From Chiloscyllium plagiosum (lineage: Eukaryota), in NCBI RefSeq assembly GCF_004010195.1, contig NC_057718.1:71417715-71444215 (forward strand): a DNA stretch of 26,501 bases, written 5' to 3'. Each line of letters begins with the position of its first letter. The first letter of the stretch is position 1. Below are positions 4,791-6,311 of this stretch, one piece after another. The translations under genes were made by a program, and so were the position numbers. The notes under the pieces were generated by a model that searched no databases, had not been told where the DNA came from, and was given only the letters and a program-made list of their open reading frames with translations.

Positions 4791-5021
4791 CAATTGCTCA
4801 TTACCATGTTTCTCTACCGTCACTGGCATACTCCACTGAGGTATTACCTTAACTTCCTTCAGGTTCCCTGCTGCATGCTATGATTTTAACAGAGCTGCCA
4901 ATCTTGGTTTCCCACACCCCTGTCGTGACCATGTGCCAATCCCCAACTGTTTCCACATGCCTGGCCATAGCCCTAAACATTTAAGTTGAAAGCCCTTATT
5001 TATTATTAAGGTCACATGTGG

Positions 5022-5275
5022 GCGGCACGGTGGCACAGTGGTTAGCACTGCTGCCTCACAGCACCAGAGACCCAGGTTCAATTCCCGTCTCAGGCGACTG
5101 ACTGTGTGGAGTTTGCACGTTCTCCCCGTGACTGCGTGGGTTTCCTCCGGGTGCTCCGGTTTCCTCCCACAGTCCAAAGATGTGCAGGTTAGGTGAATTG
5201 GCCATGCTAAATTGAACCTAGTTGGACTTGTTGGGCCGAAGGGCCTGTTTCCACACTGTAATGTAATCTAATCTA
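5022..5275 (+). mobile_element. tRNA-derived SINE (HE1/V-SINE type) with 6-bp TSD
   Basis: A/B boxes, V core and TAATC tail; TSD ATGTGG at 5016-5021 and 5276-5281. Confidence 0.92.
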
Positions 5276-6311
5276 ATGTGGCACATCACCTGGCACACTA
5301 CACCACATTTCCAGGAACACATTTCTCTCTATTTGCAGAATCACTCTCTGCTCCCCTATTATTATTGCTTCACTTTTCAAATGGTGTGGAGCAGTGACTT
5401 CCTTCTGCCATTGCCTCTCTAACATCTCATCCTGAGCTTCATCAAATATCAGTGTACAGTGCAGCTCAGGCTTAGGTGGTCCTGCTCCAGGCAGCATTGT
5501 CAACACTTCTGCTTCCCACTTCCCCCAAATCTCTTGAACACCACATGCTATATCCCTTATCCAATAAACATTAACATTTCTAGCTTCTTGCATCACTAAC
5601 TGTGTATTAGTCTTTTCTACAATTAAGCCCTGCTCTATGCCCTCTAATCTTATTTCTAATTGTAATAAAGCATCCCTACTTAACAAATTGATTGGCATCT
5701 CTTTAGAAACTAATATTGGCAAAACTATCTCCCTACATTCCATTTCTAACCTTACTGGATCTGTAAATCAAGTTAACTACGATTTCCCTGAGAATTTAAC
5801 AAATTTGCTTGGGAAGGTGAGAGGAATTCTGGGTAATCCAAGGTGGAGGATGGGAAAAATTTCTGGCTGTAACAGCTGCTCCTTTTTTGAGGTATTTAGG
5901 GAGATAGTGAGGAAAGAGATCGATCTCAGACTGCTACATTTGAGAACAGAAGTGAGTCAAACAGTCAGGGCAGGCAGGGACAAGGTAGGATGAATAAATT
6001 AAACTGCATTTATTTTAATGCAAGGGGCCTAACAGGGAAGGCAGATGAACTCAAGGCATGGTTAGGAACATGGGACTGGGATATCATAGCAATTACAGGA
6101 ACATGGCTCAAGGATGGGCAGGACTGGCAGTTAATGTTCCAGGATACAGATTTTACAGGAAGGATAGAAAGGGAGGCAAGAGAGGAAGGGGAGTAGTGTT
6201 TTTGATAAGGGATAGCGTTACAGCTGTGCTGAAGGAGGAAACATATCCAGGGATGTTATTTGGGTGGAACTGAGAAATAAGAAAAGGATGATCACCTTAT
6301 TGGGATTGTAT

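Follow-up and report, generated by a model that had tools for sequence, protein, structure and literature searches.

A SINE-interrupted relic of a CNPase-like 2H phosphoesterase domain in the pol region of a shark endogenous retrovirus

The ERV-A provirus and its interrupted domain

The analyzed window is a 26,501-nucleotide stretch of vertebrate repeat DNA from the shark Chiloscyllium plagiosum (contig NC_057718.1, positions 71,417,715 to 71,444,215). Two proviruses within it are considered here, ERV-A (about 220 to 13900, minus strand) and ERV-B (15964 to 23406, plus strand). On the minus strand, ERV-A reads in the order protease (PR), domain of interest, reverse transcriptase (RT), colinear with its relatives P0015, P0039, and P0057. 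The protease remnant (5632 to 5833) corresponds to the C-terminal part of a retroviral aspartic protease: a tblastn alignment with P0015, a protein of the stingray Hypanus sabinus (XP_059830613.1) whose Pfam RVP match spans residues 8 to 103, runs from residue 36 onward at position 5833, with the lower boundary projected. The N-terminal part, which would carry the catalytic motif, was not found in ERV-A by tblastn with the relatives. The RT remnant (4095 to 4710, minus strand) is scattered over several frames and interrupted by stops and by a large gap; its tblastn pieces are 35 to 80% identical to the devil-ray relative P0100, and Pfam RVT_1 matches with an E value of 1.4e-5.

Between these two remnants, an open frame on the minus strand (5282 to 5575) holds the N-terminal two thirds of a CNPase-like 2H domain, 49 to 50% identical to P0015. 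The first 2H motif, His-Cys-Thr, lies at 5453 to 5461, and its His codon (CAC, 5461-5459), correctly placed in the first-pass annotation, is found within ...PPKPELHCTLIF. The frame terminates in ...GDVPH at a SINE inserted at the second motif (5022 to 5275, plus strand), and a frame below the SINE reads VTLIINKGFQLKCLG. The second His thus falls 61 codons past the first, as had been noted, compared with 63 in ERV-B, whose uninterrupted homologous domain (19980 to 20500, plus strand; His codons at 20127 and 20316) served as the comparison reference. Two further copies of the SINE in the window (2257-2448 and 17401-17554) match it at 96% identity, and the summed read depth over it, in the millions, identifies it as a high-copy repeat. 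It is bordered by a 6-bp direct repeat, ATGTGG on the plus strand, with a left copy at 5016 to 5021 and a right copy at 5276 to 5281; on the minus strand, the right copy encodes Pro-His at the position of the second catalytic His. The annotation had equated this repeat with an exact target duplication of the Pro-His codon pair. The repeat itself is present at both places, but loose ends of other SINE copies accumulate at 5019-5020 and GG also precedes the SINE body in a second window copy, so the final GG of the left repeat may derive from the SINE. The 5' edge of the SINE is thus placed only to within about 2 bases, and fewer than 6 bp may actually have been duplicated at the target. That the repeat takes in exactly two codons reflects where the reading frame happens to fall and is not evidence.

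Below the SINE, the remainder of the second-motif strand and the loop to a conserved Leu-Gly occupy 4971 to 5015 (minus strand); read from 5021, with the repeat included, this piece scores 13.1 bits at positions 102 to 118 of a broader profile. Near 4970, the similarity shifts frame, and the rest of the C-terminal part of the domain (4797 to 4970, minus strand) is decayed and frameshifted, with P0015 aligning in two frames and a profile score of -0.5 bits (E = 0.039). A second short high-copy insertion (4714 to 4790, plus strand), flanked by CAATTG at 4708-4713 and 4791-4796 and presumably resembling the 3' tail of a CR1 LINE, lies in the interval between the domain and the RT remnant. The proposed split of the domain by a SINE at the second motif stands, whereas the frame change and the second insertion had been missed.

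The ERV-A copy is dead, and no intact product can be encoded. Between its putative 5' LTR and the protease remnant (5833-13165), no gag similarity was found; this interval contains LINE-like ORF pieces, a 22-base tandem array (11463-12143), and three repeat copies at about 6900, 10600, and 12570. Elsewhere in the window, the second SINE copy is accompanied by an inverted duplicate of part of the ERV-A integrase region (2445-3107), and an inverted repeat of 81 bp (6418-6587), whose arms are 99% complementary and 8 bases apart, is perhaps a small non-autonomous transposon. A chance landing in a decaying provirus suffices to account for the SINE at the catalytic His, and the provirus was probably decaying already when the SINE arrived.

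Sequencing reads indicate that ERV-A has relatives. The part above the SINE reaches a summed depth of 120 to 710 in run X1, compared with about 5 for the contig identical to the ERV-A locus, and runs from two other organisms cover it as well; related copies therefore exist, although these depths imply no copy number. Among the 40 differences listed (90 more exist), none alters the codon of the first His or the Thr, and among the 15 joints listed of about 1200, none runs across the SINE. Read depth at 4811-4995 is low (0 to 123). In the RNA run X21, of which about 2% was examined, no reads fell on the non-repeat parts.

ERV-B is nested in the LTR of an ERV-A-family element, with the 4-bp duplication ATGT at both ends, and the sequences on either side of it (15784-15962 and 23406-23887) align with neighboring halves of the LTR at 13165-13898. 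The end of a third provirus, comprising an integrase tail, env, and a 3' LTR, occupies 23406-26501 on the minus strand and is 76 to 82% identical to ERV-A; the window does not extend to its PR-RT region. At 22358-22876, the RNase H of ERV-B is followed by just the end of integrase and then by the LTR, most of integrase being missing, and no env frame precedes this LTR among the open reading frames of the window. The ERV-B LTRs carry a 43-base tandem unit (16063-16277 and 22933-23061) that is repeated more often in the 5' LTR than in its 3' counterpart.

Homologs, conserved residues, and predicted fold

The similarity of the ERV-A domain to its ERV-B counterpart was assessed against a profile of 15 ERV-B-type PR-RT linker domains, with significance estimated from 1000 shuffles. 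The piece above the SINE scored 30.2 bits, and the reading with X at the break 39.7 bits, and none of the 1000 shuffles reached either score; the piece below the SINE, taken alone, scored 0.5 bits, which 20 of 1000 shuffles reached, and is not significant. Pairwise BLASTP between the ERV-A and ERV-B domains gave an E value of 2e-7 (26% identity over 73 aa). The parallel between the two domains that had been read from their motif layout is thus borne out. An exhaustive search with the ERV-A upstream frame retrieved 39 relatives at E ≤ 0.001. The best of these, P0015 (E = 3e-42, 50% identity), has a continuous second motif and the same His spacing of 61 as ERV-A. The ERV-B domain has a 93% identical counterpart in a protein of Chiloscyllium punctatum. 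Against these results, the idea that decayed sequence in ERV-A resembles the motifs by chance draws on the lack of any Pfam match for either ERV-A piece, on a word-based search of proteins in which the upstream piece found nothing among 18 candidates, and on the non-significance of the downstream piece alone. The exhaustive search did find relatives, however, and together with the profile shuffles it refutes the chance reading, whose probability is negligible. Words of the form [LP]H[CV]TL occur five times in the real sequence compared with a shuffled mean of 0.16, but this pattern was picked post hoc and is not counted as evidence.

In Pfam, the ERV-B domain matches 2H families only below threshold, and among 19 members the sub-threshold matches were to LigT_PEase (4 of 19), 2_5_RNA_ligase2 (3 of 19), and 2H-SAK (2 of 19), none over the cut-off; the Pfam CNPase family was absent from the Pfam matches. 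One relative has a more elaborate Pol: P0057, a Logan record of 2316 aa, has besides the 2H domain a Macro domain, located between RNase H and integrase (residues 1348-1461; Pfam E = 6e-13), and its 2H domain and RT are separated by a long additional segment.

Both HxT/S motifs are kept in 48 of the 55 full-length relatives. The second His is invariant (55/55), and the first His and the Thr of the first motif are each present in 52 of 55; in P0015, the first motif is His-Cys-Ala. Beyond the motifs, a Pro five residues before the first His (50/55), a Tyr or Phe five residues after it (53/55), and a Gly 15 residues after the second His (52/55) recur at offsets that would correspond to CNPase Pro225, Phe235, and Gly324 relative to His230 and His309, equivalences matched by offset in the numbering of PDB titles. 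In the available text of Raasakka 2015, Phe235 is described as crucial for substrate binding (PMC4643303). Two residues before the second His, at the position equivalent to CNPase Arg307, 45 of the 55 relatives have Val, Ala, Thr, or Ile, and no conserved Arg was found. According to the same text, the R307Q change in CNPase raises KM and keeps kcat (PMC4643303). Arg307 thus acts on substrate affinity, as an accessory rather than a catalytic residue. Because Arg is not conserved at this position, the domain is named CNPase-like and not a CNPase, and its substrate may differ.

Two related readings deny the domain an enzymatic role: it could be a non-catalytic spacer or binding module, or it could be a decoy for host membrane-bound CNP, which blocks particle formation via Gag. 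Some observations agree with them. The full motif pair is missing in 7 of the 55 relatives, the domains of six rows outside the main clade described below are partly degenerate, and one table row in the accessible part of PMC7471995 lists host CNP as an HIV-1 MA binder that inhibits particle formation. Against both readings, the second His is kept in all and the first in nearly all relatives, while the domains are mostly only 20 to 40% identical to one another, a pattern typical of a catalytic site under selection. A spacer or decoy is accordingly considered very unlikely.

The fold was predicted for the uninterrupted P0015 domain, which is 50% identical to the ERV-A domain and stands in for it here, with a 37-row alignment; the model has a pLDDT of 95.5 and a pTM of 0.88. 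A single-sequence fold of the ERV-B domain reached a pLDDT of 42 and was not used. Among the Foldseek matches listed for the P0015 model against the PDB, all are CNPase or RICH (best E = 1.3e-6). In a wide structure search, mouse CNPase ranked first (Z = 16.1, rmsd 3.0, 160 residues aligned), and the next row scored 9.5; the top 21 rows (Z 6.1 to 16.1) are, by title or in part presumably, all 2H proteins. A second structural comparison added human CNPase (Z = 16.7), goldfish RICH (14.1), and the fungal structure 6u05 (13.2), with other 2H proteins at 9.6 or less. Overall, CNPase structures scored Z 16.1 to 16.8 with rmsd 2.5 to 3.0 over 160 of 165 residues. Far lower scores were obtained for Acb1 (8.3), mouse hepatitis virus (MHV) ns2 (8.2), rotavirus VP3 (7.6), AKAP18 (7.4), and the penguinpox cGAMP phosphodiesterase (PDE) (6.2); the viral 2',5'-phosphodiesterases of the ns2/VP3 type, at 6.8 to 8.2, lie well under CNPase. 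In the P0015 model, a helix (113-123) directly follows the second-motif strand (102-107). Raasakka 2015, in the text available, places helix alpha7 of CNPase at that point, absent from other 2H proteins and perhaps setting stereospecificity (PMC4643303); the likeness to alpha7 is one of position only.

Sequence comparison with the PDB was far less informative than structure, at 9 to 17% identity to CNPase. A sequence search with one domain gave nothing significant, and RT and protease matches dominated the search with a full-length profile. With a domain-only profile of 19 sequences, 16 of the 18 rows at E ≤ 10 were CNPase or RICH, but at E values of 0.7 to 1.5 none was significant, and an unrelated WRKY match outranked CNPase. 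Among the viral models of BFVD, the three top matches to the P0015 model were the entry Q2VF30, probably from a salmon retrovirus, and the polyproteins of walleye epidermal hyperplasia virus 1 (WEHV1; Q9WHI8; E = 5e-11, TM 0.83) and walleye dermal sarcoma virus (WDSV; A4GTG3; E = 7e-9, TM 0.81), with TM scores of 0.81 to 0.86. The predicted structure of the P0015 domain confirms a two-lobed 2H fold that is specifically CNPase-like, and, with the conservation of the His and Thr residues, it agrees with the 2H assignment made in the first-pass annotation.

Inheritance of the domain among fish retroviruses

An RT-based search returned 114 relatives, and a quick RT tree of 108 rows, rooted at the midpoint, was built from relatives other than the named reference viruses. 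Among 106 fetched rows, the domain was present in 70, lacking in 14, and unclear in 1, with 21 too short to judge; seven near-duplicate rows were removed before the tree was built. The named hosts are mostly teleosts. Sampling was partly biased, as some of the searches selected on the domain and one on the RT.

ERV-A and ERV-B are distant within this tree. Their LTRs share no BLAST similarity and the primer-site sequences after their 5' LTRs differ, as had been observed at the outset; the RT path between them is 2.46, compared with a maximum of 2.66 in the set, and a tree with the two as sisters is rejected (p-AU = 0.0002). ERV-A RT is sister to the devil-ray element (SH-aLRT 96) within a 36-row clade (97) whose other rows comprise 31 that bear the domain and 4 that cannot be assessed. 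A separate clade (100) unites ERV-B with other elements. ERV-A and ERV-B both fall, nevertheless, within a single 73-row clade (SH-aLRT 85), in which 64 other rows bear the domain, 7 are too short, and none lacks it, and all 14 rows clearly without the domain lie outside this clade. Because ERV-A and ERV-B are not sisters but belong to one clade in which every assessable row bears the domain, one old acquisition inherited by both is the reading drawn from the tree. The suggestion that the module is old and was kept in two separate retroviral lineages is upheld as to its age, which refers to RT divergence with no date assigned, and as to the separateness of the lineages; "kept in two lineages," however, amounts to inheritance within one large fish-retrovirus clade. 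As retroviruses can switch hosts, the range from shark to teleost does not date the capture.

The domain and RT trees, both of them quick trees, agree in the comparison that had been proposed earlier. Across 55 shared rows, domain and RT distances are correlated (Mantel rho = 0.81, reached in 0 of 2000 permutations), although relatedness inflates Mantel tests, and of the 18 supported RT splits, 15 are also found in the domain tree. Independent acquisition or exchange of 2H domains by ERV-A and ERV-B, through separate captures or recombination, would be consistent with their low mutual identity (about 23 to 26%), with a domain-tree path of 4.08 out of a maximum of 4.95, and with the one RT split in 18 that conflicts with the domain tree. 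That sole conflict, however, involves neither ERV-A nor ERV-B. The domain occupies the same position in Pol, with a PR-to-RT distance of about 214 to 250 residues in most members, none of the 64 other assessable clade members lacks it, and both the distance correlation and the shared splits speak for descent in common. Separate origins are therefore regarded as highly improbable, and the co-inheritance seen in these sequences fits one early acquisition followed by vertical inheritance.

Outside the main clade, divergent and partly degenerate domains were found in P0107, P0112, P0116, P0117, P0126, P0128, and P0111, beside relatives that lack the domain. In the RT tree, six divergent domain-bearing rows fall outside the 73-row clade, among rows without the domain. 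These outside rows suggest an origin deeper than the split between ERV-A and ERV-B, with subsequent losses (3 changes over 86 rows).

Possible function and comparison with known systems

The explanation as a whole, to which a probability of roughly 0.7 is assigned, is that ERV-A preserves, within the Pol polyprotein (protease-2H-RT) of an epsilon-like fish retrovirus, what is left of a 2H phosphoesterase domain of CNPase type. A single acquisition by the ancestor of the clade, with a CNPase-like gene of a vertebrate as the most likely source, would account for the presence of the domain in ERV-A and ERV-B alike by inheritance. In the live virus, the domain would have been translated within Gag-Pol and packaged beside the RT, where, by analogy with CNPase, it may have hydrolyzed 2',3'-cyclic phosphates to a 2'-phosphate and a free 3'-OH. 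The leading candidate use, put forward tentatively and at somewhat under even odds, is the opening of cyclic-phosphate ends left by host ribonucleases on viral RNA or the primer tRNA, or the clearing of 2',3'-cyclic nucleotides.

The same domain, with the same origin, could instead have served as an antagonist of innate immunity that cuts a signaling nucleotide, 2-5A or cGAMP. Viral 2H enzymes of both kinds exist: 2-5A is cut by coronavirus ns2 and rotavirus VP3, whereas cGAMP, whose synthesis is a response to reverse-transcribed DNA, is cut by Acb1 and poxvirus enzymes. An antagonist would accord with the fold that the domain has in common with Acb1, MHV ns2, rotavirus VP3, and the penguinpox enzyme, with the changed residue at the Arg307-equivalent position, and with the Macro domain of P0057 Pol, which is another counter-defense module. 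In the structural comparisons, however, such enzymes score 7 to 10 Z units below CNPase. Pol proteins are produced at low levels, which is more in keeping with a task confined to the virion than with antagonism. The named hosts, moreover, are mostly teleosts, which to our knowledge lack OAS. In its accessible part, PMC6307210 reports an OAS protein in the elephant shark, which would favor an antagonist, and leaves the teleost question unsettled. Likewise, the available text of Iyer 2022 gives 2-5A targeting as one proposed role of the 2H domains of RNA viruses (PMC9503650). Taken together, these considerations make an antagonist unlikely, and what weight remains after the uses listed here would go to a substrate not among them.

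A bolder scenario, less likely than not, joins these elements: a vertebrate CNPase catalytic domain captured once, before the sampled shark, ray, and teleost retroviruses diverged, might have been kept from then on as an extra Pol enzyme alongside PR, RT, RNase H, and IN that converts the 2',3'-cyclic-phosphate ends of nicked primer tRNA or genome RNA to a 3'-OH usable by RT, or that destroys a nucleotide alarm signal. If true, it would point to a restriction of retroviruses in fish by RNA cleavage or nucleotide signaling, of which no description was found in the literature.

CNPase and 2H domains in fish retroviruses are already published. The available text of Iyer 2022, citing Mazumder 2002, lists 2H domains in fish retroviruses and WDSV (PMC9503650), and that of Naville and Volff 2016, citing Basta 2009, states that a CNPase or macro domain is found now and then in the epsilon-like ERVs of ray-finned fish (PMC4977317). 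Term searches of the main text found no mention of such a domain in the study of shark ERVs by Han 2015 or in a 2021 survey of zebrafish ERVs. No functional test of the retroviral domain was found in the literature searched, which excluded most subscription papers. What is modestly new here is the evidence for a stable, co-inherited Pol domain across a clade that includes shark and ray viruses. ERV-A itself is a dead fossil and one more datum for the CNPase-like domain as a stable inherited part of Pol. The domain appears to be not the occasional extra of the 2016 review but a feature co-inherited across a wide retroviral clade that spans sharks, rays, and teleosts, and the retention of its catalytic site across that divergence argues for a real job in the viral cycle. 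Its substrate is what would be new, and uninterrupted natural domains exist.

Among known systems, the walleye viruses (WDSV and WEHV1) and teleost ERVs carry the same CNPase/2H domain, and the ERV-A-type model matches the polyprotein models of the two walleye viruses. Identity with the walleye proteins amounts to only 13 to 16%, and their entries are labeled "Envelope polyprotein," so that a PR-RT position in them is presumed; the link of ERV-A to named epsilonretroviruses accordingly rests on a match between predicted folds. Compared with the fish epsilon-like retroviruses, ERV-A differs in having a shark as host and in being a broken copy. Vertebrate CNPase is the best structural match (Z 14 to 17 over about 160 residues) and shares with the retroviral domain the paired HxT motifs and, as judged by offset and position, apparently also the Pro five residues before and the aromatic residue five residues after the first His, the Gly 15 residues after the second, and a helix after the second-motif strand. 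It differs in length (210 versus about 165 residues) and His spacing (79 versus 61 to 63), and the retroviral domain, at 9 to 17% identity to CNPase, lacks the conserved Arg two residues before the second His and lies within a viral polyprotein. The fungal tRNA-ligase-type cyclic phosphodiesterase (PDB 6u05, chain range 643-832; PF08302) follows at Z 13.2, and an Atlas feature matches at 0.94 to clusters with PF08302 in 63% and 31% of their members; the structural score is nevertheless lower than that of CNPase, with an rmsd of 3.7, and the ERV-A provirus has no ligase or kinase partner. Finally, MHV ns2, rotavirus VP3, Acb1, and the penguinpox PDE, all four virus-encoded enzymes, together with AKAP18, share the 2H fold (Z 6 to 8) but match far more weakly than CNPase and belong to other branches of the superfamily.
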